From an uncultured Flavobacteriaceae bacterium (GTDB taxonomy: Bacteria; Bacteroidota; Bacteroidia; Flavobacteriales; Flavobacteriaceae): a DNA stretch of 64,000 bases. A model generated the notes under the pieces. That model worked only from the letters and a program-made list of their open reading frames with translations, searched no databases and was not told the DNA's origin. Positions 80 to 20,554 of this stretch are shown here, piece after piece (position 1 is the first letter of the stretch; every line of letters begins with the position of its first letter). The position numbers were made by a program, and so were the translations under genes. The DNA is taken from NCBI GenBank assembly GCA_964495935.1, contig CAZBXQ010000005.1, positions 3,862-67,861 of the forward strand, read 5' to 3'.

Positions 80-102
80 TGAATTTAATTTTGTACAGAT
101 TC
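80..102. repeat. 23-nt dispersed repeat TGAATTTAATTTTGTACAGATTC (second exact copy at 23519-23541)
   Basis: Exact 23-mer occurs twice in the window, both times in non-coding DNA. Confidence 0.7.
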
Positions 103-1260: not shown

Positions 1261-1325
1261 TGAATTTGAAGCCGATTTCGGTTGCTAGCAGAATAAACTT
1301 GAACCTGAACTCGAAACTTTGAGGA

Positions 1326-1691
1326 ATGACTGGGAAAATTTATCCGTATCAGGATTTATCGGAGCGTCTGGAGGATTTTGCGGCAGATGTAATCCATTTG
1401 TTAGATAAAAAACCGCAGAGTTTCGCGGCAGATTACCTTGCGAAACAACTTATCCGGTCTTCGTGTTCAAGTGCCTTAAATTACGGTGAAGCTCTTGGTG
1501 CTGGAAGTAAAAGGGACAAAGTCCATAAATTGAGATTATGTCTAAAGGAGCTGAGAGAATGTTTACGTAATTTACGGATACAGTTGAAGGCTAAATTATT
1601 ACAAAAAGAACAGCTGAGCTCGCTGATTGAGGAAAATGATCAACTGATCAGAATTATTTTTACACGCATAAAAAATTTAGATAGAAGTTAA
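1326..1691 (+). CDS. four-helix-bundle protein (23S rRNA intervening-sequence protein family)
   Basis: 121 aa. Family motifs QLIRSSCSSALNYGEA and LKELRECLRNL. Paralogous to 4582, 6237 and 16826. Confidence 0.85.
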   Translation: MTGKIYPYQDLSERLEDFAADVIHLLDKKPQSFAADYLAKQLIRSSCSSALNYGEALGAGSKRDKVHKLRLCLKELRECLRNLRIQLKAKLLQKEQLSSLIEENDQLIRIIFTRIKNLDRS

Positions 1692-1777
1692 TTAATCAAA
1701 TACAAAACTTGGTTTTGATTCTTGTATTGACTCTTCAAATCGAGTTCAAATTCAAGTTCCACTTAATATTTATTACA

Positions 1778-2074
1778 ATGACAAAAACAAATAAAAACGA
1801 ATGGCCTCTCTGGGAGGTATTTGTACGCAGTAAAAACGGATTAGAGCATCGGCATTTTGGAAGCTTACACGCGGTGGATGCTGAATCGGCATTGCAGGCG
1901 GCGAGAGATGTCTATACCCGCAGAATGGAGGGAGTGAGTATCTGGGTGGTAGAGTCCAAACAAATCACGGCTTCTGATCCCGCGGCAAGCGAAGAATATT
2001 TTGGGCCGGCAGAGGATAAAATTTATCGCCATCCCACGTTTTATGAATTACCGGAAGGGGTAAAGAACATGTAA
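1778..2074 (+). CDS. paaB: 1,2-phenylacetyl-CoA epoxidase subunit B
   Basis: Internal ATG of ORF 1709-2074 gives MTKTNKNEWPLWEVFVR..., about 98 aa, the typical PaaB size. The upstream extension is translated repeat DNA. Confidence 0.88.
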   Translation: MTKTNKNEWPLWEVFVRSKNGLEHRHFGSLHAVDAESALQAARDVYTRRMEGVSIWVVESKQITASDPAASEEYFGPAEDKIYRHPTFYELPEGVKNM

Positions 2075-2105
2075 TTCATCAAGAAAAGAATTTAAAAAAG
2101 CAATT

Positions 2106-2891
2106 ATGGCAACAAATAAAAGAATTAATCCCTATCCCAAGGATGACGGTCTGATAGGATTCATTTACGGTTTGGCGGATAGCTCTTTGATACTGGCCCA
2201 GCGATTAAGTGAACTCTGTGGCCACGGTCCTTCTCTGGAATTGGATATGGGGATGACCAATATTGCACTGGATCTTTTTGGTCAGGTGCGTTCCTATTAT
2301 CAATATGCAGCAAAGAAGATAGGAGGAGAGACAACGGAAGATGACTTGGCTTTTTTCAGGACCGAAAGGGAGTTCCGAAGTGTACTTTTGGTCGAGCAGC
2401 CCAATACGGATTTTGCCTATGTCATGGCCCGTCAATTTTTGTACGATCATTATCATTACTTAATGCTGCAAAAACTGCAGCAAAGTGAAGATGGCATGCT
2501 GGCCTCTATTGCGAGGAAGAGCGTTAAAGAGGTGGAGTATCACCGGGAATATTCTTCCGGGTGGATAAGACGATTTGGTGATGGAACCGGAGAAAGCCAC
2601 GAACGAATTCAAAAAGCGATTGATGATCTTTGGGTTTATACCGACGAACTCTTCCATAAGATGCCGGCCGATAAAAATATGATCAATGAAGGAATCGGAG
2701 TGGATTTTGAGGCCTTTAAAGAAGAATACTACAAAAATGTAGAAGAAGTACTTGAAGAAGCAACTCTTAAAGTTCCCGAATCCAAATATTTCCAAAAAGG
2801 AGGCAAAAATGGTGTTCATACCGAACATATGGGACATTTATTGACAGAAATGCAGTATATGCAAAGAACGTATCCGGGGATGGAATGGTGA
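2106..2891 (+). CDS. paaC: 1,2-phenylacetyl-CoA epoxidase subunit C
   Basis: 261 aa, PaaC-like ferritin fold, located after paaB. Confidence 0.88.
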   Translation: MATNKRINPYPKDDGLIGFIYGLADSSLILAQRLSELCGHGPSLELDMGMTNIALDLFGQVRSYYQYAAKKIGGETTEDDLAFFRTEREFRSVLLVEQPNTDFAYVMARQFLYDHYHYLMLQKLQQSEDGMLASIARKSVKEVEYHREYSSGWIRRFGDGTGESHERIQKAIDDLWVYTDELFHKMPADKNMINEGIGVDFEAFKEEYYKNVEEVLEEATLKVPESKYFQKGGKNGVHTEHMGHLLTEMQYMQRTYPGMEW

Positions 2892-3168
2892 TAAGTACGG
2901 AGTATGGAGTAATTAGTAGTGAGTAATGAGATCAAAGTTGATCATAGAATACGGGATGAACCTGAACATTATCAACGGTCGTTGAGCCTGTCGAAACGAG
3001 GATGACGAACTTGAATTTGAACTCAATTAACCGATTCATTAGTTCACCGATTAACCAATTAAACAGCTCACCGACCAGCCGATTCACCAGTTAAACTACA
3101 TATCTAATCTCTTCCCTCCAAAACCTATTTCCTAACACCTAACGCCTAACACCTCTAATACCTAAACC

Positions 3169-3675
3169 ATGATTACCTTACCCAATAAAGTTCAAATAGA
3201 TAAAAGGTTATTCCCGGTGTTGAAGAATGTTCACGATCCGGAAATTCCGGTAGTTTCTATTATTGATATGGGAATGGTGCGGGAAGCCGTCTTGGATGGA
3301 AATATTGCTAAAGTCAAGATTACGCCGACCTATAGCGGCTGCCCGGCCACGGATATGATTAAATTTGACGTTGGCGTGGCCCTGGAGCAAGCGGGTTATG
3401 AGCCCGAGGTGGAACAAGTTATCGATCCCCCCTGGACGACTGATTGGATTACTGAAGAAGGACGTCAGGCCATGGCCGATTTTGGAATTGCTCCGCCGGA
3501 GGAGGCAACCGCCGATCGAAGGGCCTTAAATGGAGAAACCCATGTGGTAAAATGCCTACATTGCGGTTCCAGCCATACCAAAATGGTGAGCCAGTTTGGA
3601 TCTACAGCTTGTAAGGCACATTTTAAATGCTTGGATTGTGGGGAGCCTTTTGATTATTTTAAATGTATGATTTAA
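3169..3675 (+). CDS. paaD: phenylacetate-CoA oxygenase subunit PaaD (MIP18/SUF-like domain plus C-terminal Cys cluster)
   Basis: 168 aa. DPEIPVVSIIDMGMV motif and CxxC...CxxC tail. Located after paaC. Confidence 0.85.
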   Translation: MITLPNKVQIDKRLFPVLKNVHDPEIPVVSIIDMGMVREAVLDGNIAKVKITPTYSGCPATDMIKFDVGVALEQAGYEPEVEQVIDPPWTTDWITEEGRQAMADFGIAPPEEATADRRALNGETHVVKCLHCGSSHTKMVSQFGSTACKAHFKCLDCGEPFDYFKCMI

Positions 3676-3715
3676 GCCTATAACGGGGTTTTTCAAAACC
3701 AATAATAAAAATTGA

Positions 3716-4498
3716 ATGAGTGATTCTATACTTTATGAGATTGAAAATCAGGTAGCTTATATCTGGTTAAACCGACCCAAAGCGTATAATAGTTGTAACC
3801 GTGAGATGGCTCTGGCTTTTCAGGAGGCTTTGAAAAAAGCAGATACTGATGAAAACGTCCGTGCTGTTTTTATTTCCGGGAAAGGGAAAGCCTTTTGCGC
3901 AGGACAGGACTTAAAAGAAGTGATCGATCAGGATAAAAATCCCGGATTTGAAAAGATTCTGGATGAGGGTTATAACCCTATTATAAAGCTGATTCGGAAC
4001 CTACAAAAGCCGGTTCTTGCTGCAGTCAACGGAGTGGCTGCCGGAGCCGGAGCCAATATGGCCCTGGCTTGTGATATTTGCATTGCTTCCGAAGAAGCAA
4101 CCTTTATTCAGGCCTTTAGTAAAATCGGATTGATTCCCGACAGTGGGGGAACGTTTTTCCTGCCCCGTTTGGTTGGAATTCAAAAAGCTGCGGGATTGAT
4201 GATGTTAGGGGAGAAAATCAATGCTCGGGAAGCGGAACGCATCGGATTGATTTACAAATGCATTCCTGCTGCTGACTTTGAAAAGGAAGCCACCACATTA
4301 GTTCGCCGATTGTCTCAAATGCCTACAAAAGCCCTCTGGAAGACCAAACAACTATTGAATCAAAGTTTTTATAATACGCTGGACGAACAACTTCATTTAG
4401 AAAGCAAAACTCAGATTGAAGCCTCCAAAACCCGGGATTATAAGGAAGGAGTACAGGCCTTTATCGAGAAAAGAAAGCCGAGGTTTGAAGGGAGGTGA
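3716..4498 (+). CDS. paaG: 2-(1,2-epoxy-1,2-dihydrophenyl)acetyl-CoA isomerase (crotonase family)
   Basis: 260 aa. FCAGQDL, AVNGVAAGAGA, FSKIGLIPDSGGT and a C-terminal DYKEGVQAFIEKRKPRF closely track E. coli PaaG. Confidence 0.85.
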   Translation: MSDSILYEIENQVAYIWLNRPKAYNSCNREMALAFQEALKKADTDENVRAVFISGKGKAFCAGQDLKEVIDQDKNPGFEKILDEGYNPIIKLIRNLQKPVLAAVNGVAAGAGANMALACDICIASEEATFIQAFSKIGLIPDSGGTFFLPRLVGIQKAAGLMMLGEKINAREAERIGLIYKCIPAADFEKEATTLVRRLSQMPTKALWKTKQLLNQSFYNTLDEQLHLESKTQIEASKTRDYKEGVQAFIEKRKPRFEGR

Positions 4499-4581
4499 TG
4501 ATTGGAGATTGATGATTGGAGATTGATGATTGATGATTGGAGATTGGAGATTTTGGATTGTTGAATTAATTAAAACTAATT

Positions 4582-4935
4582 ATGAGACCTGCGGACTTGG
4601 AGGATAGATTAATACAATTTTCCATATCTATTATTATTTTTTGCAGACAAGTGGAACGTACTTTTTCAGCTGAACATTTATCAAAGCAATTAATCCGTTC
4701 AGCCACCTCTGCTGCTTTAAATTATGGGGAAGCTCGGAGTGCAGAATCACCTCGTGATTTCTTACACAAGATGAAAATTTGTTTAAAGGAGTTACGAGAA
4801 TGTATGGTTAATCTGAAAATCCAGAAGGGAGCGGGGTTAAGTCAAAAGGAGATGTTGGTAGAATCTTTACTGAAGGAGAATAATGAGCTTATATCCATTT
4901 TTGTTAGTAGTATTAAAACTTCCTCAAGAAAATGA
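4582..4935 (+). CDS. four-helix-bundle protein (23S rRNA IVS family)
   Basis: 117 aa. QLIRSATSAALNYGEA and LKELRECMVNL motifs. Confidence 0.85.
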   Translation: MRPADLEDRLIQFSISIIIFCRQVERTFSAEHLSKQLIRSATSAALNYGEARSAESPRDFLHKMKICLKELRECMVNLKIQKGAGLSQKEMLVESLLKENNELISIFVSSIKTSSRK

Positions 4936-5010
4936 AATAAGAATTAATTGAAATTAGAAAAACATCAAATCGTTAATCAACAATCGTTGATCTTAAATCG
5001 TTAATCAAAC

Positions 5011-6189
5011 ATGAACATCACAATAATCGGAGCCGGAACCATGGGAAGTGGGATTGCACAAGTGGCGTCCACCGCCGGCTGTAGGGTAAAATTATTTGAC
5101 ACCAATGAGGAAGCTTTGACCAAAAGCAAAGAAGCATTGGAAAAAATCCTTCGGCATATCACCGATAAAGGCAGGATCACGGAAGATGAAAAAAACCGGA
5201 TTCAGGGGAATATTTCCTATGTCCAAAAAATGGCGGATCTGCATGATGCCGAATTGACCATCGAGGCCATAGTCGAGAATGTGGATATCAAACACCAGGT
5301 CTTTAAAGAATTGGAAAAGATTCAAAAGAAAGATGCCATTTTGGCTTCCAACACCTCTTCCATCCCAATCGCTGAGATTGCGTCGGTTTTGGAGCATCCG
5401 GAACGGGCTATTGGAATTCATTTCTTTAATCCGGCACCGCTGATGGCGTTGGTGGAAATCATTCCGGCGGTTCAAACTTCCGAGGAGATAAAAAACAAGG
5501 TTGTTCAGATTATAAAGGATTGGGGGAAGATTGGTGTTCTGGCCAAGGATACCCCGGGCTTTATCGTCAATCGCGTGGCCCGGCCGTTTTATGGAGAAGC
5601 CTTGCGTATTTATGAGGAAGGAGAAGCGAGCTTTGCGGAGATTGATAAGGCAATGAAGGAACTGGGAGGTTTCCGGATGGGCCCTTTTCAGTTGATGGAC
5701 TTTATCGGCAATGATATCAATTACAGTGTGACGGAAACCGTTTTCCGAGAGTTTTATTACGACCCTCGGTATAAGCCTTCTTTTACCCAGAAACGCCATG
5801 CGCAGGCCGGATATTTGGGAAGAAAAACGGGAAGAGGATATTATTTCTATAAAGACGGAAAGATGGATACCGAGAAGTCACCCGACTGGGACAAGGAGCT
5901 CGATCAAGAAAAAGGACAAAAAATAGTCGATCGAATTCTGGTGATGCTGATTAATGAAGCTGCCGATGCTTTGTTTTTAAATGTGGCCACCGCTAAGGAT
6001 ATTGATCTGGCCATGACCAAAGGAGTCAATTATCCCAAAGGACTTTTGGCCTGGGCCAACGAAAAAGGAATCGATTGGTGTGTGGAAGAAATGGATGAAC
6101 TCTACCATATTTATCACGAAGACCGGTATCGATGTAGTCCGTTGTTGAGGAAGATGAAAGAAGAGGGAAGTAGTTTTGTAGTCTTATAG
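5011..6189 (+). CDS. paaH: 3-hydroxyacyl-CoA dehydrogenase (3-hydroxyadipyl-CoA dehydrogenase role)
   Basis: 392 aa. N-terminal Rossmann motif IIGAGTMGSGIA plus a 3HCDH C-terminal domain, in paa context. Confidence 0.82.
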   Translation: MNITIIGAGTMGSGIAQVASTAGCRVKLFDTNEEALTKSKEALEKILRHITDKGRITEDEKNRIQGNISYVQKMADLHDAELTIEAIVENVDIKHQVFKELEKIQKKDAILASNTSSIPIAEIASVLEHPERAIGIHFFNPAPLMALVEIIPAVQTSEEIKNKVVQIIKDWGKIGVLAKDTPGFIVNRVARPFYGEALRIYEEGEASFAEIDKAMKELGGFRMGPFQLMDFIGNDINYSVTETVFREFYYDPRYKPSFTQKRHAQAGYLGRKTGRGYYFYKDGKMDTEKSPDWDKELDQEKGQKIVDRILVMLINEAADALFLNVATAKDIDLAMTKGVNYPKGLLAWANEKGIDWCVEEMDELYHIYHEDRYRCSPLLRKMKEEGSSFVVL

Positions 6190-6236
6190 TTTTTTAGTTT
6201 CGTGGTCTTATAGTTCTTTTTAAAATTCGACTTAAT

Positions 6237-6605
6237 ATGAAAAATGAACCTTATTTTAAGTTTGAGGATTTAAAAATCTATCAGAAAGCGTTGGATTATG
6301 GGGAATTTGTGAATGAGCAGATTTCTAAATTTCCAAGAGACGAAACATTTCGATTGTCATCTCAATTCATTAGAGCTGCAGATTCTATCGCTCTGAATAT
6401 AGCGGAGGGATATTCGGGCTCTCCTACAAACTTTATTCGTTATTTAAGGATAGCACGGGGAAGCTTGGATGAATGAGTGGTTTGTTCTACTAAGGCACTT
6501 AGAAGACATTTTATAACAAAAGATATAGATATGCGGAATCGTGAGAAATTGTCTGAACTTTCAAAAATGATTTCTTCTTATATAAATTATTTAAAAGGGA
6601 AATAA
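6237..6605 (+). pseudogene. four-helix-bundle (23S rRNA IVS family) gene interrupted by an in-frame TGA
   Basis: The ORF stops at 6474-6476 (..GSLDE*). The same frame continues VVCSTKALRRHF...SSYINYLKGK* to 6605 and aligns with paralog 16826 (..SLHECVACNAKALRREY..). The TGA replaces the conserved Cys codon. Confidence 0.75.
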
Positions 6606-6686
6606 CAATTAAAATTACTTAGATAAACTGCGATGCCATCCAGCCACATAACTACTCAACTACATAACTAACAAACAAACTATATC

Positions 6687-7112
6687 ATGAATCGATTACT
6701 AACCCCTTCCGAAATCACCGAAACCATGCTGGCCAATGATAAGTTTAGCCAGTGGCTGGGAATTGAGATTTTAGAGACCCGGAAGGATTATTGTAAATTA
6801 AAAATGACGATTCGGGATGAAATGCTCAATGGGATGAAAAAGGCCCAAGGAGGGATTACTTTTTCTTTTGCCGATTCTTGTTTTGCCTTTGCCAGTAATA
6901 CGAGAGGAAAGAAGGCGGTTTCCATAGAGGCTTCCATTAATCATATTGAAGCTTTGGAGTCGGGTGACGAAATCACGGCTGAAGCAGAAATGGAGAGCAT
7001 GAAGAATAAACTGGGGTTTTATATCGTTAGAGTATATAAGGGGGATAAGGTCGTGGCTTTGTTTAAGGGGGTAGTGTATCGCACAAGTGTAGAGTGGAGG
7101 GAAGGGGATTGA
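6687..7112 (+). CDS. paaI: hydroxyphenylacetyl-CoA thioesterase (hot-dog fold)
   Basis: 141 aa, PaaI-like, in paa context. Confidence 0.82.
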   Translation: MNRLLTPSEITETMLANDKFSQWLGIEILETRKDYCKLKMTIRDEMLNGMKKAQGGITFSFADSCFAFASNTRGKKAVSIEASINHIEALESGDEITAEAEMESMKNKLGFYIVRVYKGDKVVALFKGVVYRTSVEWREGD

Positions 7113-7297
7113 ACCTGAACTTGAAGAATTATAAAATTGGAGTACTATAATGGACTTGGCAGATTAACTATAGCATCAACGGTAAATTTATATGAGTAAA
7201 ACAGCTAATAATGAATATATATTAGTCATTATACTAATAATACTATAATATTAGTTTTTTCACTAATAATTATTATCTTTGGAAAAAGTCTGATTTT

Positions 7298-7993
7298 ATG
7301 AGGTATTCGGTTTTGTCAGGAGATATCATATCCTATACGGCATTGAACTCCTCTAATAGGGAGTTTTTGGTGGAGGAGCTCAACAGGTTTTTGGATCAGT
7401 TGAATTCTCATTTTAAAACTTTTGGGAGGATTATAAAAGGTGATTATTTGGAATGTGTAGTTCCCGATTCGACCGAGGGACTTACAGTAGCGTTAGCCTT
7501 TAAAGGATTTGTAAAATCACTTCCCATCGAAGAGAAAGAAGAGACCCCCCGGTTTAAATTGTTTAAAACTTATGGGATTCGAATGGCCATAGGATATGGA
7601 GAATTAAGTCGTTATAACCCTGGAGATGGCGTGATGGATGGCGAGGCAATTTATCTTTCGGGTCGTAAGATTTCCGGTCTGACAACCTATGATAAAAAGA
7701 GGGTTACCATAAAGCATTCCTTATATTTTGCTTCCAATGAACCCGATTTGAATGATTGTTTTGAGCCGTTGATGAATTTACTTGATGTTTTGTTGACAAA
7801 AGCCACGGCTCGACAATGTGAAGTATTATATCTCAAGTTACTGGGATTATCAGAGGATGAAGTCGCCTCGAAGTTGGGAATTGGGCAATCGGCCGTAAAT
7901 CAACATTCGACCAGTATAGGTTGGAATGCCATTGATTCTGCGGTTCAATATTTTAAAAAAGTAATTTCAGGAGAGGAGGATAATGAGATTTAA
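7298..7993 (+). CDS. SatD-like protein: N-terminal nucleotide-cyclase-like domain plus C-terminal sigma70-region-4/LuxR-type HTH
   Basis: 231 aa. The C-terminus (ARQCEVLYLKLLGLSEDEVASKLGIGQSAVNQH) is an HTH. Family assignment is from memory of the SatD/DUF3307 pairing. Confidence 0.5.
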   Translation: MRYSVLSGDIISYTALNSSNREFLVEELNRFLDQLNSHFKTFGRIIKGDYLECVVPDSTEGLTVALAFKGFVKSLPIEEKEETPRFKLFKTYGIRMAIGYGELSRYNPGDGVMDGEAIYLSGRKISGLTTYDKKRVTIKHSLYFASNEPDLNDCFEPLMNLLDVLLTKATARQCEVLYLKLLGLSEDEVASKLGIGQSAVNQHSTSIGWNAIDSAVQYFKKVISGEEDNEI

Positions 7994-8690
7994 GGAATTC
8001 ATAATACTACAGATCGTGGCTCATGTGCTCTTGGATTATTTTTTTCAAACTCATAAGCTGGCACAACTTAAGAATACGAAGGGTTTCAAAAGTAAGTTTC
8101 TCTACGGCCATGCTTTATTGTGCTTTTTGTTATCCTGGGTTTTTTCTTTGCAATTGAATTTTGTCTGGGCTGCTTTGATTATTGCTGTAACGCATCTTTT
8201 AGTAGATGGTTTTAAACCGATTTTGGGGAGAATCAACCGGCTTCGACCCTATCTCTTTTATCTGGATCAGTTTGTTCATGTTCTGGTCTTGATTGCCGTG
8301 GTTTACGGGTTTGATTCATGGATTGGAATACAGCCGTCCATTGATGTTGAGCTCAACTTTAAGGTCCTGTTAATGGTAACCGGATATTTAGTTTGTCTAA
8401 AACCCACTAATATTTTTATCCAGGAGATTTTTAGATCCACGGAGATTCAGGTATCCAGTGATAACGAGATGCCGAATGCCGGTAAGGTGATCGGGATCTT
8501 AGAACGGATTTTGACGCTGACTTTGATTTTAGTCAGCCAATATTCGGCAGTCGGGTTTTTAATCGCGGCCAAATCCATCTTGCGTTATCGGAGTGATGAA
8601 ACCTTAAAATCTGAATATGTTCTTATCGGAACGCTGCTGAGTTTTGGGGTTGCTGTGATTGTAGGGATCATGATAAATGTCTGGGGATAG
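7983..8690 (+). CDS. multi-pass membrane protein, DUF3307-like
   Basis: 235 aa, several hydrophobic helices. Overlaps the previous gene by 11 nt, which suggests translational coupling. Confidence 0.5.
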   Translation: MRFKEFIILQIVAHVLLDYFFQTHKLAQLKNTKGFKSKFLYGHALLCFLLSWVFSLQLNFVWAALIIAVTHLLVDGFKPILGRINRLRPYLFYLDQFVHVLVLIAVVYGFDSWIGIQPSIDVELNFKVLLMVTGYLVCLKPTNIFIQEIFRSTEIQVSSDNEMPNAGKVIGILERILTLTLILVSQYSAVGFLIAAKSILRYRSDETLKSEYVLIGTLLSFGVAVIVGIMINVWG

Positions 8691-8790
8691 GATAAGCGTA
8701 TAAATATAAATTGCGAGCCAGTCTTGATGAATGCAATCGATTATGGAAAGTTTTTAATCATCTCAATACGAACAAATAAAACATAGCTAT

Positions 8791-10002
8791 ATGAAAGAAG
8801 TTTATATAATAGATGGGATTCGAACGCCCATCGGAAAATTTAAAGGAACCCTGTCATCCGTGCGAACAGACGATTTAGGGGCCCTGGTGATTAAGGAAAT
8901 CGTTGAACGCAATCCCGATATCCCGAAAGAAGCCTATGACGATGTCATTATGGGATGTGCCAATCAGGCGGGAGAAGATAACCGGAATGTAGCGCGGATG
9001 TGCCTGTTATTGGCGGGCTTGCCCTATACGGTTCCGGGGGAGACGGTCAACCGGCTTTGCAGTAGCGGATTATCCTCTATTATTCATGCTAATCGGGCTA
9101 TTAAAGCCGGAGATGGAGATCTGTTTATTTCGGGTGGAGTAGAACACATGACCCGGGGGCCCTATGCCATTTCCAAACCCAGTTCGGCTTATGGAACGGA
9201 TTCAAAGATGTATGATACGAGTTTTGGCTGGCGGTTTGTCAATCCGAAGATGGAGGAAATGTACGGTACGGAGGGAATGGGGTTTACCGCTGAGAATTTG
9301 GTCGATAAGTACAAAATTTCACGAGCAGACCAGGATGCATTTGCGACCTGGAGTCAGCAGAAAGCAACCAAAGCGCAGGAAAATGGTCGATTGGCCAAAG
9401 AAATAGTACCGGTGGAAATTCCCAGAAGAAAACAGGAGCCCTTGATTTTTGAAAAAGATGAATTTGTACGCCCCGGTACAACAACAGAAATACTGGCACA
9501 ATTACGACCTGCTTTTCGTAAAAAGGAGGGAACCGTAACCGCCGGGAATTCATCCGGATTAAACGATGGAGCAGCGGCTACGATTATTGCCTCAGAAGAT
9601 GCTATTAAGCAGTATAATTTAAAGCCAATGGCGCGAATCATCAGCTCTGCGGTGGTTGGAGTAGAACCCCGGATTATGGGAATCGGGCCGGTAACGGCCT
9701 CCAACAAAGCCCTGAAAAAAGCGAGGTTGAGTATGAACGACATGGATATTATTGAATTGAATGAAGCTTTTGCCGCCCAAAGCTTGGCTTGTACCCGTGC
9801 TTGGGGATTAGCTGATGACGACCCACGTTTAAATCCGAATGGGGGAGCCATTGCCATTGGCCATCCTTTGGGAGTGACAGGAACGCGAATTTGTTATTCG
9901 GCAGCACTGGAATTACAGCTGACCGGTAAAAAATATGCGCTGGTTACCATGTGTGTGGGGGTCGGGCAGGGCTACGCCGCTGTGATTGAAAATGCCAGTT
10001 AA
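8791..10002 (+). CDS. paaJ: 3-oxoadipyl-CoA/acetyl-CoA C-acyltransferase (thiolase)
   Basis: 403 aa. Thiolase motifs NRLCSSGL, NEAFAAQ, GHPLGVTG and CVGVGQG. Confidence 0.9.
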   Translation: MKEVYIIDGIRTPIGKFKGTLSSVRTDDLGALVIKEIVERNPDIPKEAYDDVIMGCANQAGEDNRNVARMCLLLAGLPYTVPGETVNRLCSSGLSSIIHANRAIKAGDGDLFISGGVEHMTRGPYAISKPSSAYGTDSKMYDTSFGWRFVNPKMEEMYGTEGMGFTAENLVDKYKISRADQDAFATWSQQKATKAQENGRLAKEIVPVEIPRRKQEPLIFEKDEFVRPGTTTEILAQLRPAFRKKEGTVTAGNSSGLNDGAAATIIASEDAIKQYNLKPMARIISSAVVGVEPRIMGIGPVTASNKALKKARLSMNDMDIIELNEAFAAQSLACTRAWGLADDDPRLNPNGGAIAIGHPLGVTGTRICYSAALELQLTGKKYALVTMCVGVGQGYAAVIENAS

Positions 10003-10040
10003 TCCGGTCATAGTACATTGAAGAAGATTATTGATTTGCA

Positions 10041-10075
10041 AAAACTACTGCTCTTCCGAGGTCGGTAGTTTTTTG
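10041..10075 (+). terminator. putative intrinsic terminator after the thiolase gene
   Basis: AAAACTAC...GTAGTTTT stem followed by a T-run, about 40 nt after the stop. Confidence 0.5.
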
Positions 10076-10244
10076 ATTTATGGATTCCGGTGCGATAAAC
10101 GGAAACGTGATCTATAATTCGTATTCTTATTTAAGGACATGTAAGTCTTTGATAATGATGCTAATAAAATAATAAAACATAATAAGTATAGAGTTTTTGG
10201 ACAATGATTTTTGTAAATTCATAGGGTAATCAAAAATTTATGTC

Positions 10245-10715
10245 ATGGATATGTTGAAAACCCCTCTCAAATTTGGAATTCTGACCGCTGTTATTTTAAT
10301 CGTCTATTTCCTTGTATTAGGAATGGGTGGCGTCAATGCCAATCCGGCTTATAGTGTTTTTAATGTGGTTATTACAGCTTCGGGAATAGCTCTCGCAATT
10401 AAGGAAATTAAGGAGAAAAATGCAGGAAAAATCCACTATAGGAGAGGCTTTGAGACGGCTTTTTTGACAGGCATTATAGCTACCGTAATATTCTCGGTGT
10501 TCTTTATTACGTATTTTGTTTATGCCCCGGGTTTTTCGGAAAAACTCCTAAAAGTGGTAGGAAAATATGCCAATACAGGAGGCGTTTTTGCCACGGTGGT
10601 TATCATGGGGGTTACGACTTCTTTTGTGGTCTCATTTGCCTTGATGCAATTGAATAAAAGCCTGATGTATAAGAAAATCAAGTCTAAAGAACAGAAGTCC
10701 GAGGCCTCCCACTAA
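10245..10715 (+). CDS. small four-TM membrane protein (DUF4199-like)
   Basis: 156 aa with four hydrophobic segments. Family guess only. Confidence 0.45.
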   Translation: MDMLKTPLKFGILTAVILIVYFLVLGMGGVNANPAYSVFNVVITASGIALAIKEIKEKNAGKIHYRRGFETAFLTGIIATVIFSVFFITYFVYAPGFSEKLLKVVGKYANTGGVFATVVIMGVTTSFVVSFALMQLNKSLMYKKIKSKEQKSEASH

Positions 10716-10775
10716 TATTTCCTGTATAGACGAATATAAAATAATTCCAGAACCGAAAATATCTTACTTGTTATA

Positions 10776-11050
10776 TCATGAGGAGGGAACCTTAAAAACT
10801 CCCTTAAACTTTCGGTTGAAGGAAGCAACCGAGTTAAATCCACTGGCATAACATATCTGGGAGATCGTCATTAAATTTTCAGCTTGCACTATCAGTTTTG
10901 CGGCAAATTGCATTTTTTTTGGAATAAGGTAATTATGAGGTACACCCCAAGATATCTCTAAATTTGGTATTGGTATATAATTGAGCCTTGTTTAAGCCGG
11001 CAATCTCCAGGAGACCGGAGATGAATATTTTTGATCAGAAATCCGGAATG
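10776..11050 (-). pseudogene. AraC/XylS-family regulator remnant (C-terminal HTH region only, frameshifted)
   Basis: Minus-strand translation gives ISGLLEIAGLNKAQLYTNTKFRDILG, then a frameshift in a G-run, then VPHNYLIPKKMQFAAKLIVQAENLMTISQICYASGFNSVASFNRKFKGVFKVPSS*. No N-terminal domain is present. Confidence 0.6.
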
Positions 11051-11165
11051 AGTAATGCCCGAAATTAATTAGAATTAAAACAAATAAATAAAAAGAATAA
11101 ACATAGCCCTTTGAGGTTATAAACTTTTTTATACATTGGGCTAACAAATGTTAGTTAGTTAAATT

Positions 11166-12524
11166 ATGAAAGCACAATTTCCTGTAGAACAGCTCTCCCG
11201 AGAGGAATTAAAGAAATTGCAAAGTGATCGTCTGGTGGAACAAGTCCGGTACGTAGAAGAAAAATCTCCTTTTTATCAGCAGAAATTCAAGGAGGCCGGA
11301 ATTACTGCAGATGATATAGAATCTATTGACGATATCCGTAGATTACCTTTGACGTATAGCCAGGATTTAAGAGATAATTATCCCATGGATTTGTTTACGG
11401 TTCCCAAAAATGAAATAGCGCGTATTCACTGTTCCAGCGGAAGTACGGGAATTCCAAAAGTAATCGGCTATACGCAAGGAGATGTGGATATCTGGTCAGA
11501 GGTCGTGGCCCGTTGCTTGAATGCGGCGGGTGCAGAACCCGGGATGATGTTGCACAATGCTTATGGATATGGCCTCTTTACAGGGGGCTTAGGCTTGCAT
11601 TATGGAGCTGAGAAATTAGGGATGACGGTACTTCCCATATCGGGCGGAGGTACGATTCGCCAAGTGGATTTAATTCAGGATTTAAAACCCGATGTCATTT
11701 GTTGTTCGCCATCCTACGCATTGACTATTGCCGATGAAATGGCTAAACGCGGTCTGAATCCATCGGACTGCAGTTTGAAGTATGCCGTTTTGGGATCTGA
11801 AGCCTGGACCGAGGCCATTCGGGATCATGTGGAGAATCGCTTGGGGGTAGAAGCTACTAATATCTATGGGTTGAGCGAAATTATTGGTCCGGGAGTATCC
11901 AACGAAGATTATCGCGAAAAAGGAGGTTCTTATGTGTGGGAGGATCATTTTTATCCCGAGATTTTAGATGCCAAAACCAAACAACCGGTAGCCTTTGGGA
12001 AACAGGGAGTATTGGTACTGACGACCTTGACCAAAAAAGGAATGCCGATGTTGCGGTATTGGACCAATGATATTACCAGTTTGTACTACGATCCTGATTC
12101 CAATCGAAATATGGTGAAAATGAATCCGATTGTGGGGAGAGCCGATGATATGTTGATTATTCGGGGAGTGAATGTATATCCCAGTCAGATTGAAGAGGTC
12201 TTTGATCATATTGATGGAGTGATTCCGAATTACTATTTGACCCCTATCGAAAAGCAAGCAATGAACATCCGACTGGAAGTAGATATAGAAGCCTCAAATG
12301 ACTACATTAAAAAATATGATTCCAAGCCCGGAGAGAGAGATTATGAAGAGCTTTTTAAAGAATTGGAAGATGAAATCCGGGAGCAAATAAAAAAACGAGT
12401 CGGAATTACGACCCATGTCAAGGTTCATCCCGAAGATTCTTTGCCAAAGAATACAGGTGGAAAAATCGACCGTATTCTCAAGAAGAAACAAATGATTGAA
12501 ATGCGCGGAGAAGGTTGGGATTAA
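11166..12524 (+). CDS. paaK: phenylacetate-CoA ligase
   Basis: 452 aa. Adenylate-forming motif SSGSTGIPKV and PaaK-like length. Confidence 0.9.
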   Translation: MKAQFPVEQLSREELKKLQSDRLVEQVRYVEEKSPFYQQKFKEAGITADDIESIDDIRRLPLTYSQDLRDNYPMDLFTVPKNEIARIHCSSGSTGIPKVIGYTQGDVDIWSEVVARCLNAAGAEPGMMLHNAYGYGLFTGGLGLHYGAEKLGMTVLPISGGGTIRQVDLIQDLKPDVICCSPSYALTIADEMAKRGLNPSDCSLKYAVLGSEAWTEAIRDHVENRLGVEATNIYGLSEIIGPGVSNEDYREKGGSYVWEDHFYPEILDAKTKQPVAFGKQGVLVLTTLTKKGMPMLRYWTNDITSLYYDPDSNRNMVKMNPIVGRADDMLIIRGVNVYPSQIEEVFDHIDGVIPNYYLTPIEKQAMNIRLEVDIEASNDYIKKYDSKPGERDYEELFKELEDEIREQIKKRVGITTHVKVHPEDSLPKNTGGKIDRILKKKQMIEMRGEGWD

Positions 12525-12599
12525 GTCTTATGCAATGAGGACTCTGTTTTTCAAATATCTTCATTCTTGAATCCACCTGTCTTCAACAAGTTTCAGATG

Positions 12600-12755
12600 T
12601 TATCGACTGAGTACATAGAATCCATGGATAACTCCGGGAAACCAGCCCAAAATCGTTAAAAGTACGTTGATTAGAAAGTCTTTTCCAAACCCTTTTTCAA
12701 GGCCGACGGCTAAAGGCGGAAGTAAAATGCAGAGGATGATTGTTAATATAGACAT
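12600..12755 (-). CDS. Pmp3/YqaE (UPF0057) family small membrane proteolipid
   Basis: 51-aa ORF missing from the track: MSILTIILCILLPPLAVGLEKGFGKDFLINVLLTILGWFPGVIHGFYVLSR. It matches the LLPPL...INxxLTxLGxxPGxIH family signature. Confidence 0.8.
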   Translation of the reverse strand: MSILTIILCILLPPLAVGLEKGFGKDFLINVLLTILGWFPGVIHGFYVLSR

Positions 12756-13054
12756 GGCAATAAAAACTTAGTGAGTATCTAAAGTTAAAATCTTTTTATA
12801 AAACAGCTTGCTGATTTTAGCGAGAATTAAATTTTTGTTGATGCATTTCGTTTTTTTATTAACACATATGTTTTTGGAAGGAAGTGTCCCTATAAAATTA
12901 GCTTTGAGATACAGGGGTTGATAGGGATTAGAGCTCGGGATGAGGGTTAACTTTGGAGATAAAAATATTTTGAGTTGAGGACTACAGGTTATTCCTTAAC
13001 TTTGATAAGCAGAATCTGGTGAGAGATTAAAATGACACGAAAGAGAATAAAATA

Positions 13055-15598
13055 ATGATAAAAGAAACAAAACATTACATTCAGGGTGAATGGAAAGCCG
13101 GAAAAGGAGAAGGACGCCCCATTTATGATGCGGTGACAGGAGAAGTGTATTCAACCGTAAGCACCGAGGGCCTGGATATTCCATCTATTTTGCAATATGG
13201 TCGGGAGAAGGGGAAAGCATTACGCAAAATGACTTTTATGGAACGAGGAAATATGCTGAAGAAACTGGCCTTTCATCTGTTGCGTAAAAAGTATGATTTT
13301 TATGAGGAGAGCTACCACAGCGGCACGACCAAAGCCGATGCCTGGTTTGATATTGATGGCGGGATTGGGAACCTGTTTGCCAATGCCTCGTTACGTAAGG
13401 AATTTCCTAATCAGCCGTATGATGTAGAAGGCTATCCGGTGGATCTTTCGCGAGGCGGTAAATTTATGGGGCACCATATTTTGGTTCCCAAGCAAGGGGT
13501 AGCCGTGCATATCAATGCGTTTAACTTTCCGGTTTGGGGAATGCTCGAAAAATGTGCTCCTACCTGGATGGCCGGAATGCCGGCAGTAGTAAAACCGGCA
13601 ACCGATACCAGTTATGTAACCGAAGCCGTGGTCAAAGAGATTATTGCTTCCGGGATTCTTCCCGAAGGGGCACTGCAATTGATTAGCGGGTCGGCTCATA
13701 CGATTCTGGATACCGTGCAGTCACAGGATGTGGTCACGTTTACCGGTTCGGCCGATACGGGGAGAAAATTAAAGGTAAATCCGCAGGTGATTCAGGAGTC
13801 CGTGCCTTTTAATATGGAGGCAGACTCCTTAAATGCTACGATTTTAGGGGAGGACGCCAAGCCCGGAACGCCGGAATTTGATTTGTTTGTCCGGGAAATT
13901 AGAAGAGAAATGACTTCCAAATGCGGCCAAAAATGTACGGCCATTCGCCGGATTATCGTTCCGGAAAGCCTGATTGAAGACGTTCAGATCGCAGTCGGTA
14001 AAACCCTGGATAAAGTAGTGGTGGGAAATCCGCGGCTAAAGGAAGTGCGGATGGGCTCTCTGGTGAGCCGTAAGCAATTAGAAGAGGTTCGTAATCGGAT
14101 TAAAGAAATATCCAAAACTGCGGAATTAGTATATGGGGATTTGGAAAAGGTGGATCTGGTTGATGCCGATTCGGAAAAGGGAGCATTTATCAGTCCCATT
14201 CTGATGCGAGAAAATGATCCTTTGCATAACCCGACGGTACATGAAACCGAAGCTTTTGGGCCGGTGAGTACGATTATGCCCTATAAAGATTTGGAGGAAG
14301 CGGTGGAAATTTCACGATTGGGGAAAGGCTCTCTGGTGAGTTCTATCTTTACTAATGATGACAAGATCGCACGGGAATATACGATCAATGCGGCGACGCA
14401 TCACGGTCGGATTCTCTGTGTCAATCGGGAGAGTGCCAAACAAAGTACCGGCCACGGTTCTCCGCTGCCTACATTGATTCACGGCGGTCCGGGGCGAGCC
14501 GGAGGAGGCGAGGAAATGGGAGGATTGCGGGGTATCCGTCATTTTATGCAGCGTTGTGCCGTTCAGGGTTCGCCCTCTACGGTGACCGAAATCACCGGGA
14601 TTTATCAGCCCCATGCAGATTATAAAGAAACTGAGAAGCATCCTTTTGCGTATTATTGGGAGGATATTCAACCCGGTATGTCTTTGAAAACCCATAGCCG
14701 TACCATTCGGGACGCTGATATCATAGATTTTGCCAATCTGACCTGGGATCATTTCTATGCCCATACCGATGAAACCGCATTGGAAGGAACTATTTTTGAA
14801 CATCGAACCGCCCACGGATATTTTATCGTTTCCCTGGCGGCGGGACTGTTTGTCTATCCCAATAAGGGGCCCGTTGCAGCCAATTACGGACTGGAGGATA
14901 TTAGGTTTATCCGTCCGCTTTATGACGGAGATACCGTGCACGTTCGTCTCACTTGTAAGCAAAAGATAGACCGCGATCAGAAAGGAAAAGTCCTGCCCAG
15001 CGGAATCGTAAAATGGTATGTGGAGGTCTTTGACACCAACGTAACCGACGGGAATATCCCGGATGATGAATTGGGAGACAAAGAGGCTTTGGTTGCTGTA
15101 GCCACCATCCTGACGATGGTGCAGAAAAAACAAACTGTTTTTGTGGAAATGACAGAGGAGAATATGGATCGGGCGTTGGCAAAGTTGACTCCCGAAACCA
15201 AACCGAAATGGGGATCGATGACAGCCCAGGAAATGATCGAGCATTTGGAGCTGTTGTATCACCGTTCCATCAGTGAAGACGTTCAGCAAGAGGAAGTGGC
15301 TACTCCTGAGAAGTATCTGGAGGATACCCAAGCTTTTTTATGGAATTACAAACCTATTCCTAAGAATTTTAAACTGCCGATTTATAAGGATAACAAGCTG
15401 CCGGAATTGAAGTACAAGGATTTGCAAACGGCAATTGAAAAAATGAAGGAAGCCCGTAAAGCGCATTACGATTATTTCAAAAAACATCCGGACGCCACGC
15501 GTCGCCATATTATCTACGGAGACCTGACAAAGTTTGAATGGAAGCTCTTAGACCGCAAGCACCTGAATCATCATTTTTCACAGTTTGGGATTTTATAA
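13055..15598 (+). CDS. paaZ: bifunctional oxepin-CoA hydrolase / 3-oxo-5,6-dehydrosuberyl-CoA semialdehyde dehydrogenase, with an extra C-terminal DinB/DUF1569-like domain
   Basis: 847 aa: ALDH domain, then MaoC hot-dog domain (as in the 681-aa E. coli PaaZ), then about 160 additional residues ending ...HLNHHFSQFGIL. Confidence 0.88.
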   Translation: MIKETKHYIQGEWKAGKGEGRPIYDAVTGEVYSTVSTEGLDIPSILQYGREKGKALRKMTFMERGNMLKKLAFHLLRKKYDFYEESYHSGTTKADAWFDIDGGIGNLFANASLRKEFPNQPYDVEGYPVDLSRGGKFMGHHILVPKQGVAVHINAFNFPVWGMLEKCAPTWMAGMPAVVKPATDTSYVTEAVVKEIIASGILPEGALQLISGSAHTILDTVQSQDVVTFTGSADTGRKLKVNPQVIQESVPFNMEADSLNATILGEDAKPGTPEFDLFVREIRREMTSKCGQKCTAIRRIIVPESLIEDVQIAVGKTLDKVVVGNPRLKEVRMGSLVSRKQLEEVRNRIKEISKTAELVYGDLEKVDLVDADSEKGAFISPILMRENDPLHNPTVHETEAFGPVSTIMPYKDLEEAVEISRLGKGSLVSSIFTNDDKIAREYTINAATHHGRILCVNRESAKQSTGHGSPLPTLIHGGPGRAGGGEEMGGLRGIRHFMQRCAVQGSPSTVTEITGIYQPHADYKETEKHPFAYYWEDIQPGMSLKTHSRTIRDADIIDFANLTWDHFYAHTDETALEGTIFEHRTAHGYFIVSLAAGLFVYPNKGPVAANYGLEDIRFIRPLYDGDTVHVRLTCKQKIDRDQKGKVLPSGIVKWYVEVFDTNVTDGNIPDDELGDKEALVAVATILTMVQKKQTVFVEMTEENMDRALAKLTPETKPKWGSMTAQEMIEHLELLYHRSISEDVQQEEVATPEKYLEDTQAFLWNYKPIPKNFKLPIYKDNKLPELKYKDLQTAIEKMKEARKAHYDYFKKHPDATRRHIIYGDLTKFEWKLLDRKHLNHHFSQFGIL

Positions 15599-15618
15599 AA
15601 TCCCAAACTGTGAAAAAT
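15573..15618 (+). terminator. 46-bp perfect palindrome spanning the paaZ stop codon (possible terminator or processing hairpin)
   Basis: ATTTTTCACAGTTTGGGATTTTA|TAAAATCCCAAACTGTGAAAAAT, 23-nt arms with no mismatch. A second hairpin, ATTACCGC-GAAG-GCGGTAAT, follows at 15617-15636. Confidence 0.6.
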
Positions 15619-15690
15619 TACCGCGAAGGCGGTAATCTATGGAGAACAATAGGCATGTCTTAGGCACTGGTTATAGCGTATAGAACGATA

Positions 15691-15981
15691 ATGAAATATT
15701 TTTTATATATCATTACCAATAAAAATAATACCGTTTTATATATTGGAATTACCAATAATCTAAAAAGACGGATGTACCAACATAAAAATAAGGTGCATCC
15801 TAATACTTTATCTGCGCGTTACAATCTTTATAAATTGATTTATTATGAACTATTTGACTCCAAAGCAGAAGCTCTAAAACGTGAACGGCAAATGAAGAAG
15901 TGGAATCGGCAGTGGAAAATTAATTTAATTGAAAAAGAGAATCCGAAGTGGTTGGATTTAATACAAGAAAATAAAGTATAA
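15691..15981 (+). CDS. GIY-YIG nuclease family protein
   Basis: 96 aa. YIITNKNNTVLYIGITNNLKRRMYQH is the GIY-YIG motif region. Followed by the hairpin TTCCCGCATGCGCGGGAA. Confidence 0.85.
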   Translation: MKYFLYIITNKNNTVLYIGITNNLKRRMYQHKNKVHPNTLSARYNLYKLIYYELFDSKAEALKRERQMKKWNRQWKINLIEKENPKWLDLIQENKV

Positions 15982-16015
15982 CCTTAAAAGATTCCCGCAT
16001 GCGCGGGAAATAAAT

Positions 16016-16777
16016 ATGAACACCGAACAATCATACGTCAAAAAAAACACCCAAAACGGTATCGCTACCGTAGAATTTTACACCCCTCATCACAACTCCC
16101 TGCCGGGACCGATTTTGGCGGAACTGGCCGAAACGATCACCGCGCTGGGGGAGGATGAAAGCGTAAAGGTAATTATTCTTAAAAGTGGCGGAAACCGGAC
16201 CTTTTGTGCCGGGGCCAACTTTCAGGAATTGATTTCCATTGAAAATAAAGAGCAGGGTGAACAATTCTTTATGGGGTTTGCCCATGTAATCAATGCCATG
16301 CGCAAGTGCCCCAAATTTATCATCGGCCGCGTTCAAGGTAAGGCCGTTGGGGGAGGAGTCGGTTTAGCCGCCTCAACCGATTATTGTCTGGCTACCAAAT
16401 TTGCGGCCATCAAACTCAGCGAATTGAATTTGGGAATTGGTCCCTTTACGGTCGGCCCGGCCGTTCAACGTAAGATCGGAGTCAGTGCCTTTGCCCAGAT
16501 GTCCATCAACTGCAATGGTTTCTACGATCCCGATTGGGCAAAGGAAAAAGGCTTCTATGCCGATGTCTTGGAAACCGCTGAAGACCTCGATAAAGCTGTT
16601 CAGGAGTTAGCCGAAGAATTGACTACTTTCAATCCCGATGCCATGGCCGAGATGAAAAAGATCTATTGGGAAGGTACGGAAAACTGGGATGATCTGCTTC
16701 ACGAAAGAGCCCTGATCAGCGGCCGATTGGTGTTGTCGGAATTTACGAAGGAGAAGTTGGAGAAGTATCGGGAGTAG
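16016..16777 (+). CDS. enoyl-CoA hydratase/isomerase family protein (possible PaaF role)
   Basis: 253 aa, crotonase fold (FCAGANF, GGGVGLAA), in paa context. Confidence 0.8.
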   Translation: MNTEQSYVKKNTQNGIATVEFYTPHHNSLPGPILAELAETITALGEDESVKVIILKSGGNRTFCAGANFQELISIENKEQGEQFFMGFAHVINAMRKCPKFIIGRVQGKAVGGGVGLAASTDYCLATKFAAIKLSELNLGIGPFTVGPAVQRKIGVSAFAQMSINCNGFYDPDWAKEKGFYADVLETAEDLDKAVQELAEELTTFNPDAMAEMKKIYWEGTENWDDLLHERALISGRLVLSEFTKEKLEKYRE

Positions 16778-16825
16778 GTAGTAGGAGATAGGTGGTAGGG
16801 ATTAGACAGATAGACGGATAACAGC

Positions 16826-17212
16826 ATGGAAATGAAAAGATCAAAATATCACTTTAAGTTTGAAGATTTATTGATCTATCAGAAGGCCATGGTATTTGGT
16901 GAAGATGTCAACGAATTGACTCAAACCTTTCCATCTGCCGAGAGATTCAACCTGATTTCTCAGTACAATAGGGCTGCAGATTCCATCGCTTTAAATATCG
17001 CCGAAGGGGCATCGGGAACTGATAAACAATTTTTGCATTACCTTAGTAATGCTTATCGAAGTTTACATGAATGCGTAGCTTGTAACGCTAAAGCTTTACG
17101 AAGAGAATATATCACTTTTCAACAAAGTGAAAAATATAGGAAACAAATGGTTGAGCTGGCGAAGATGATTTCTTCTTTACGTCGAACAATCGCCAAAAGA
17201 ATAAGTACATAG
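16826..17212 (+). CDS. four-helix-bundle protein (23S rRNA IVS family)
   Basis: 128 aa. YQKAMVFGEDV, RAADSIALNIAEG and SLHECVAC motifs. Confidence 0.85.
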   Translation: MEMKRSKYHFKFEDLLIYQKAMVFGEDVNELTQTFPSAERFNLISQYNRAADSIALNIAEGASGTDKQFLHYLSNAYRSLHECVACNAKALRREYITFQQSEKYRKQMVELAKMISSLRRTIAKRIST

Positions 17213-17260
17213 TTTTTATTTTTATTGACGCCTACAGCCTAATACCTAACACCTAAATCC

Positions 17261-17860: not shown

Positions 17861-17899
17861 ATCTAAATAGTTATATTCGTTTACAGCTGAAATAATATA

Positions 17900-18139: not shown

Positions 18140-18145
18140 GTAAAA

Positions 18146-20537: not shown

Positions 20538-20554
20538 ATAAACTTTAAAGAACT

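Follow-up and report, generated by a model that had tools for sequence, protein, structure and literature searches.

Proteins of the PF05635/S23p family were first found in ribosomal-RNA "intervening sequences" (IVSs), and the origin and function of both the rRNA IVSs and the S23p/PF05635 proteins have been in question since the early 1990s. The IVS of Coxiella burnetii (helix 45) combines an S23p open reading frame (ORF), tandem heptamers upstream of it and a stem that is cut by RNase III (Warrier et al. 2016, PMC4990558). Heptameric repeats form ~70 convergent inverted pairs per Xanthomonas genome, occur likewise in Nostoc and are transcribed (Rehm et al. 2015, PMC4692102), and rRNA genes of candidate phyla radiation (CPR) bacteria carry insertions with small ORFs (GIY-YIG, also 23S_rRNA_IVP) scattered over sites, with ORF-bearing and ORF-less versions at one site (PMC11270868). 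The question of IVS origin bears on the locus described here, the paa gene cluster of an uncultured Flavobacteriaceae bacterium (GCA_964495935.1; 3.63-Mb genome, 40.7 % G+C), which lies in a 64,000-nt stretch of contig CAZBXQ010000005.1 (C5:3862–67861; hereafter the window, to which all positions refer). Four genes of the PF05635 family (IVP1–4, also ORFs 1–4) reside in this cluster, framed by arms of short, complementary tandem words. These cassettes, best understood as IVS-type hairpin cassettes outside rRNA, are subject to evolutionary turnover and yet long-term selected residents.

The paa cluster is co-directional (310–17860) and comprises paaA, paaB, paaC, paaD and genes for an enoyl-CoA hydratase (paaG) and a 3-hydroxyacyl-CoA dehydrogenase (paaH), followed by those for a thioesterase (paaI) and a thiolase (paaJ), paaK, paaZ, a second hydratase gene and paaY; a 2-oxoacid dehydrogenase E2/E1 pair is located downstream of paaY. 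Each of the four ORFs occupies a paa gene junction in sense orientation, and four of the eight PF05635 genes in the genome are found within this 16-kb cluster. The recurrent module of ~460–520 bp consists of a 5' arm of G/T-rich tandem words, the PF05635 gene and a 3' arm of complementary C/A-rich words:

1261–1324, + strand: cassette 1, 5' arm; GAAYYT-type hexamer words (1261–1281, 1296–1324), directly after the paaA stop (1258–1260)
1326–1691, + strand: IVP1; 121-aa four-helix-bundle gene (PF05635/TIGR02436) of the paa-associated P1 clade, IVP1 type
1725–1759, + strand: cassette 1, 3' arm; also pairs with 3007–3041 in the paaC|paaD spacer (35 nt, 80 %); paaB start at 1778
4496–4564, + strand: cassette 2, 5' arm; GATTGGA/GATTGAT heptamer array with a 14-nt period, beginning at the paaG stop TGA (4496–4498)
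4582–4935, + strand: IVP2; 117-aa four-helix-bundle gene with orthologs at paaG|paaH in 66–67 other Flavobacteriaceae loci
4965–5007, + strand: cassette 2, 3' arm; AATCGTT/AATCAAC words, ending 3 nt short of the paaH ATG (5011)
6171–6218, + strand: cassette 3, 5' arm; TAGTYTN words, encoding the final paaH codons and stop (6187–6189)
6237–6605, + strand: IVP3; pseudogene with TGA (6474–6476) in place of a conserved Cys codon
6650–6676, + strand: cassette 3, 3' arm; weak, 70–76 % complementary; paaI ATG at 6687
16775–16807, + strand: cassette 4, 5' arm; TAGGNNG words, beginning on the stop of the enoyl-CoA hydratase gene (16775–16777)
16826–17212, + strand: IVP4; 128-aa four-helix-bundle gene, highest-scoring of the four in Pfam (96 bits), with a weak Avd-model match
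17231–17260, + strand: cassette 4, 3' arm; last base adjoins the paaY ATG (17261)

The cassettes fill the space between a paa stop codon and the paa start codon that follows, with arms beginning on or directly after the stops of paaA, paaG, paaH and the hydratase gene and ending 19, 3, 10 and 0 nt before the respective next start. In the orthologs at the paaG|paaH junction (G|H; n = 49), the median offset of the 5' arm start from the end of the host stop is −1 nt, and the 3' arm stops short of the host ATG by 1 nt (median). Inverted repeats of 19 and 18 nt (89 % each) are present in cassette 1. The coordinates and strings of the flanks quoted in an initial annotation of this DNA were correct throughout. 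A scan of positions 1–20000 revealed no promoter or terminator signals over background, and no Rfam families were found in 1–23000. The spacer before IVP4 (16803–16822; GACAGATAGACGGAT) resembles GACAGAT, the heptamer repeated in tandem upstream of the S23p ORF in the C. burnetii IVS.

The initial annotation had described the four genes as family members of ~120 aa. All four indeed match PF05635 (49.8, 45.1, 70.9 and 96.0 bits for ORFs 1–4; cut-off 33.8), and ORFs 1, 2 and 4, whose frames are intact (121, 117 and 128 aa), also match TIGR02436 of NCBIfam (70–90 bits; cut-off 24). ORF 3 (6237) is interrupted by the in-frame TGA at 6474–6476, which reads TGT (Cys) in the ortholog of a congener (L003), and is otherwise open to 6605. 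ORF 3 is a fresh TGT-to-TGA pseudogene. Recoding of the TGA, e.g., as selenocysteine, was considered and rejected, since the ortholog has TGT at this position and family pseudogenes in relatives carry all three stops. IVP4 matches PDB entries 2GSC (4.8e-9) and 2RLD by sequence, both solved pentameric four-helix-bundle proteins, while its match to the Avd model (NF033474; 1.6e-5, 25 bits) is far under the 80-bit cut-off. The Pfam matches of the IVP ORFs are to PF05635 only, and no nuclease domain was found in them.

To judge flank complementarity, the duplex energy of each flank pair was compared with that of 300 dinucleotide-preserving shuffles. Initial z-scores from mononucleotide shuffles of 100-nt flanks had been noisy and were replaced by this comparison, by genome-wide ranks and by a comparison of matched with mismatched flanks. 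All four pairs beat their shuffles: the IVP2 flanks reach −48.9 kcal/mol (z −6.4; 0/300 shuffles equal), followed by those of IVP1 (z −3.2; 3/300), IVP4 (z −2.9; 2/300) and IVP3 (z −2.0; 8/300, i.e., weak). Reversed-arm controls paired much more weakly. Cassettes 2 and 4 thus show strong complementarity; it is moderate in cassette 1 and weak in cassette 3, which holds the pseudogene. When the ~3027 ORF-called genes of the genome are ranked by flank pairing, members of the family take the 3rd, 6th (IVP4) and 7th (IVP2) positions, with IVP1 ranking 82nd.

The arrangement was then followed in 76 intact PF05635 genes with their flanks from 25 genomes of the same order. Own flanks pair with a mean of −29.6 kcal/mol compared to −17.7 ± 6.7 kcal/mol for mismatched flanks (Mann–Whitney p = 4e-25); matched flanks rank within the best 5 % in 38 of the 76 cases and within the best 1 % in 18. 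The arms (median 32 nt, 81 % identity) are runs of 6–10-nt words that differ from cassette to cassette, some of them perfect over 23–27 bp. Both neighbours run in the same direction as the cassette in 69 of 70 scorable cases, as opposed to 54 % of genes generally (P ~1e-17), and the G-rich arm lies upstream in 47 cases and downstream in only 6 (p = 6e-9). The stem-enclosed-ORF architecture is therefore a family-wide property in these genomes and not peculiar to this operon, which bears out the proposal that the IVS geometry is reused at operon junctions.

Orthologous junctions were compared in the paa operons of 20 relatives (all relatives of the source genome are Flavobacteriaceae) and, with the P1 loci treated below, in ~100 related operons overall. 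Filled and empty junctions are both present among the relatives, i.e., the presence/absence polymorphism raised in the initial annotation exists. In compact relatives the junctions measure −13 to +10 nt, the genes overlapping or almost touching; every IVP-holding junction measures 456–517 nt, with the termini of the host proteins intact. Cassettes are located upstream of paaA and at A|B, B|C, C|D, G|H, H|I, I|J and hydratase|paaY, in combinations that vary by genome. Among 61 PF05635 matches in 22 paa-bearing genomes, 15 lie inside the paa cluster, at no fewer than (at least) 8 junctions; as the cluster makes up ~0.6 % of the genome, ~0.4 copies would be expected, the 15 observed copies being in part orthologous and not all independent.

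In the closest relative (G004; PaaA 90 % identical), A|B is without a cassette, and G|H is without an ORF but keeps a class A 3' arm (see below) before paaH. Its paaG|paaH gap (L001 1480–2040, minus strand; 547 nt, fold z −8.6) contains two copies of a ~60-nt unit with CCTCCCCRTCCGGGGGAGG hairpins, which looks like a miniature inverted-repeat transposable element (MITE)-type repeat that replaced the cassette ORF. Two stretches of arm-type words are also found in the window itself:

2892–3168, + strand: paaC|paaD spacer; 277 nt, ORF-less, with arm-type word arrays
7109–7125, + strand: isolated 5'-type word array (TTGAACCTGAACTTGAA) across the paaI stop; 94 % identity to 1299–1315 in the arm of cassette 1

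The paaC|paaD spacer contains a copy of the 5' words of cassette 1 (3007–3024) and of the 3' words of cassette 4 (3124–3142), including an 18-nt perfect complement to the 3' arm of cassette 1. The same junction holds an intact cassette in three relatives (L010, L142, L151), and the spacer is probably a scar of lost cassettes. The TTGAACCTGAACTTGAA array at the paaI stop is accompanied neither by a partner arm nor by an IVP ORF. Cassettes are thus gained and lost between related genomes, and arms can outlast genes.

In a tree of 77 proteins, the paa copies fall into three clades (4 label changes compared to 12 in shuffles; 0/500 as low). One of these, clade P1, includes ORFs 1 and 2 and consists of paa copies only. 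With the P1 alignment as query, 242 relatives were found among genomes sampled at one per species, and the best 80 were examined. In these best 80 of 242, 78 loci are in paa operons, with genera including Flavobacterium, Gelidibacter, Winogradskyella, Aquimarina, Nonlabens, Mesonia and Bizionia. IVP genes in the 80 loci are found at G|H (67), H|I (22; IVP3/IVP4 type), B|C (16) and I|J (11), and the two non-paa loci belong to a sugar oxidoreductase/isomerase operon, again in co-directional arrangement. P1 genes occur in 41 of the 401 sampled genomes of the family and are hence widespread but patchy. In several genera (L085, L093, L105, L112, L131, L133, L159), a ~1 kb gene resembling pyridoxal phosphate (PLP)-dependent threonine dehydratase separates paaG from the IVP2 cassette, the 5' arm of which here begins on the stop of that gene and not on that of paaG.

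The G|H orthologs share a mean pairwise identity of 73 %, compared to 74 % for the adjacent PaaH, and the distances of IVP2 and PaaH are correlated (Mantel r 0.34; 0/500 permutations as high). The ratio of nonsynonymous to synonymous polymorphism (pN/pS) is ~0.04–0.26 in ten of the eleven closest pairs, the remaining pair being without amino-acid change. The lineage of ORFs 1 and 2 is a long-term resident of flavobacterial paa operons, spread over dozens of genera and held under strong purifying selection. Slow divergence and low pN/pS do not agree with a decaying parasite; the initial description of the operon as "colonised", which suggests recent selfish inserts, had to be corrected for ORFs 1 and 2.

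Arm motifs are inherited together with the protein. The IVP1 type carries GAANNY hexamer arms at A|B, B|C and C|D alike, one IVP2 clade carries GATTNNN heptamers (class A), and the other IVP2 lineages carry GAATAWC heptamers (class B) at G|H, I|J and C|D. This joint inheritance speaks for arms that are part of the module and not of its target. Words of the two heptamer classes differ at two positions, and both arms have changed to match (GATTAAC/GTTAATC versus GAATATC/GATATTC); a class B upstream arm combined with a class A downstream arm yields only −11.3 kcal/mol, compared to −22.8 kcal/mol within class B. The matched changes in both arms suggest that complementarity, or concerted copying from arm to arm, has been maintained.

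Among known systems, the ORF-bearing IVSs of 23S rRNA are the closest. Those of Coxiella and Leptospira (PMC4990558) have in common with the cassettes the S23p/PF05635 protein, a long inverted-repeat stem around the ORF and heptamers upstream of it, as well as a size of ~430–500 nt, a sporadic distribution, the degeneration of some ORFs and a proposed mobility. The cassettes differ in residing at protein-coding junctions instead of an rRNA helix, in arms that run from stop to start and in the presence of several copies per operon. Moreover, strong purifying selection acts on at least one cassette lineage; the Coxiella ORF, in contrast, is in decay and probably not translated (PMC4990558). RNase III excision is established for the IVSs (PMC4990558) and is a hypothesis for the cassettes.

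The Avd protein of diversity-generating retroelements (DGRs; NF033474) has a distantly related four-helix-bundle fold, but the cassettes are accompanied neither by an adjacent reverse transcriptase nor by a template/variable repeat. RVT_1 matches are restricted to C16:429–1085 and C18:15563–16147 in this genome, i.e., to other contigs, with none in the window and neither of them near a PF05635 gene; no template/variable repeat pair was found in 1200–17400, where the longest direct-repeat families are the arm arrays. As already held in the initial annotation, the cassettes are not a DGR. The arrays of Rehm et al. (PMC4692102) are similar in that 7-nt words lie between co-directional genes, G-rich after the stop and C-rich before the next ORF. 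However, they were read as G-quadruplex formers and not linked to an enclosed gene family, whereas the present arrays are AT-rich, cassette-specific and frame a PF05635 gene.

Free-standing homing-endonuclease genes and the CPR insertions (PMC11270868) are also similar; in the window, GIY-YIG and PD-(D/E)XK mini-genes share operon junctions with IVP genes. In contrast to homing-endonuclease genes, PF05635 has no recognised nuclease domain, and neither an intron or intein nor a defined homing site is present; lacking a nuclease domain, the cassettes are not homing-endonuclease genes. With MITEs, REPIN-RAYT systems and integron cassettes they have in common that they are short inverted-repeat intergenic elements, and integron cassettes are likewise promoter-less ORFs read from upstream. 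The arms, however, are word arrays that are not common to the copies: a test for shared terminal repeats found the words to be individual to each of the 8 genome copies and to each of the 76 cassettes. Neither a transposase, RAYT or integrase nor a single attC-type site is associated with them. Since their arms differ between copies, the cassettes are not transposons with terminal inverted repeats or MITEs.

With roughly even chances, the four ORFs can be understood as the cargo of IVS-type hairpin cassettes that occupy an mRNA operon instead of 23S rRNA. The arms would pair in the polycistronic transcript, and the resulting stem of 20–60 bp would loop the cassette out as an IVS is looped out from an rRNA helix. 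The base of this stem would set the host stop opposite the next start and thereby recreate the coupled junction of compact relatives. A ribosome terminating upstream may then melt the stem base and unmask the downstream start, and/or RNase III, the gene of which is present in the genome, may cut the stem; either route would make the insert tolerable at an originally translationally coupled junction. The Avd-like protein may have its own cassette's nucleic acid as its target, be it for maintenance, relocation or control. Going further, one may tentatively speculate that some lineages of PF05635 cassettes are operon-resident, self-maintaining modules of gene plus arms without transposase, which would remain with one polycistronic operon over tens of genera, move or convert between its cistron junctions in a transcript- or array-templated manner and occasionally escape to another operon. 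Their stem would re-juxtapose stop and start and keep them coupled across 0.5 kb, the protein would be the nucleic-acid-binding factor of its own cassette, and rRNA IVSs would represent a special case.

Several observations weigh against the hairpin-cassette reading. About one quarter of the cassettes lack flank pairing above background; these include two PF05635 copies of this genome, on C21 and C48, which gave nothing in the genome-wide ranking. The stem of IVP3 is weak (z −2.0). That arms abut the host stop and start is also expected trivially if a mere insert ends in a zero-length junction. No target duplication was identified, with the nearest empty-site genomes at ≤90 % PaaA identity and metagenomes at ≤77 % PaaH identity, and no enzyme for cassette movement was identified. 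A candidate for fresh transposition of a whole cassette, the A|B and B|C copies of L133, had to be rejected: their ~99 % identity is limited to the ~300-nt ORF core, while ORF ends, spacers and arms have diverged, as in gene conversion. At least some of the apparent movement of cassettes is gene conversion between cassettes. For this reason the changes of the junction label on the P1 tree (at least 11, with a minimum possible of 6) represent an upper-bound style estimate of relocations. Finally, a wobble test on 57 arm pairs gave 53 G·U-type versus 60 A·C-type mismatches and hence no sense-strand G·U bias, and mismatches in the arms are mostly transversions.

The latter two results fit a turnover of arrays, or conversion from arm to arm, at the level of DNA better than selection on an RNA helix. 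If the arms act only as DNA, their word arrays would be kept alike by slippage or gene conversion and serve as substrates for copying of the ORF, with the RNA stem as a by-product. Arm arrays that persist without ORF, identical words recurring at several operon junctions, the conversion tract in L133 and the concerted change of motifs over all units of both arms are in line with this explanation. It is nevertheless considered rather improbable, as it leaves unexplained the sense orientation within co-directional gene pairs (69/70), the upstream position of the G-rich arm (47 versus 6) and arms that run exactly from stop to start; orientation, polarity and stop-to-start span point to a constraint at the level of transcript or translation. 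Residence of P1 in paa operons (78 of the best 80 loci of 242), divergence at the rate of PaaH with a pN/pS of ~0.1 and arm motifs that track the protein clade could also mean that IVP1 and IVP2 are domesticated, non-selfish accessory or regulatory proteins of the paa operon, which bind the word arrays (as RNA or DNA) and tune expression. Such a role is unlikely, as no more than 41 of 401 family genomes and a minority of the relatives' paa operons carry the lineage, which is frequently lost with scars left behind, has no fixed position in the operon and is found in a sugar-oxidoreductase operon as well; furthermore, the family shows the same architecture in many unrelated operons (e.g., at fadA|fadE).

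The order of events may have been the reverse, in that the arms were pre-existing target hairpins into the apical loop of which the ORF alone inserted. Gene-less word hairpins do exist at paa junctions of relatives, e.g., at G|H of L020 (z −5.0) and D|G of L015 (z −3.6), and the L133 conversion tract comprises the ORF core only. However, a hairpin would not fit into the overlapping junctions of compact relatives, each family of arm motifs accompanies its protein clade from junction to junction, and different IVP lineages at one junction have different arms (A|B of the window compared to L002/L003; fadA|fadE). Target hairpins were mostly rejected on the first two of these grounds and are considered highly unlikely. 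That flank complementarity arose by chance from low-complexity sequence is scarcely credible: simple repeats do inflate duplex energies and the IVP3 stem beats its shuffles only marginally, but chance is refuted by the comparison of matched with mismatched flanks (p = 4e-25), and it agrees neither with three family members in the top 7 of ~3027 genes nor with the much weaker reversed-arm controls.

In the literature searched, the gene-in-hairpin module is described for rRNA only and intergenic heptamer arrays are described without the gene; occurrence of the family in paa operons was not found to be described. New here are the operon-resident P1 lineage under purifying selection and the co-inheritance of the arm motif with the protein clade. 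Further contributions of the window are four copies in a single data-rich operon, junctions that are filled, empty or scarred across a bacterial family, evidence for gene conversion and a negative wobble test. The module sits in an inducible, non-essential catabolic operon of a family with many cultured, genetically tractable carriers, the orthologous cassette being present, e.g., in Flavobacterium aquatile LMG 4008, Mesonia mobilis DSM 19841 and Nonlabens xylanidelens DSM 16809. Cutting of the stem by RNase III, coupling of the flanking genes and the ligand of the protein thereby become testable, and the question is raised why selection acts on a small gene as strongly as it does on a core enzyme. 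With respect to annotation, operon "spacers" composed of word arrays are likely to be cassette scars.

A second hot spot is the thiolase|acyl-CoA dehydrogenase (fadA|fadE) junction of a β-oxidation operon, i.e., again of a catabolic acyl-CoA operon. IVP cassettes are located there in seven genomes (L024, L029, L032, L033, L036, L047, L049) and represent three lineages with three arm motifs (TCTTGA, TTCTCT and CTAACTA words).

The same layout with a different cargo is found downstream of the paa cluster:

19844–20554, + strand: parallel cassette with a GxxExxY / PD-(D/E)XK gene (PF13366, TIGR04256; 19930–20373), between the E2 and E1 genes

CGCAAAG words upstream of this gene (19879–19915) are complementary to CTTTGCG words in a 3.3-fold tandem array of ~50-nt units (20374–20537). 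Matched flanks of 31 GxxExxY family members in relatives pair with −34.6 kcal/mol compared to −20.2 kcal/mol for mismatched ones (p = 9e-8), indicating that the hairpin frame is not tied to one protein fold. A stand-alone GIY-YIG gene (96 aa; 15691–15981) lies between paaZ and the second hydratase gene (region 15573–16015). It is framed by local hairpins and not by long-range arms, namely a 46-bp perfect palindrome over the paaZ stop, TTACCGC..GCGGTAA and TTCCCGCGCATGCGGGAA, and its homologs in relatives are located at varying paa junctions (A|B, B|C, J|Z, Z|hydratase, Y|E2).

Further peculiarities of the cluster concern its host genes and remaining gaps. PaaZ (13055–15598) has 847 aa; its aldehyde dehydrogenase and MaoC domains extend to about residue 646, the C-terminal ~200 residues being without Pfam match. 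The paaI–paaJ interval (7113–8790) holds two added genes, neither of which is present at that junction in the relatives examined; they encode a 231-aa protein with a weak LuxR/sigma-70 region-4 helix-turn-helix and a 235-aa DUF3307 membrane protein. In the paaY|E2 gap (17861–18496), a 97-aa ParE-toxin-like ORF (18146–18439; Pfam 21.4 bits, slightly below cut-off) is directly preceded on its 5' side by a 79-aa ORF (17900–18139), with which it may form a toxin–antitoxin pair.

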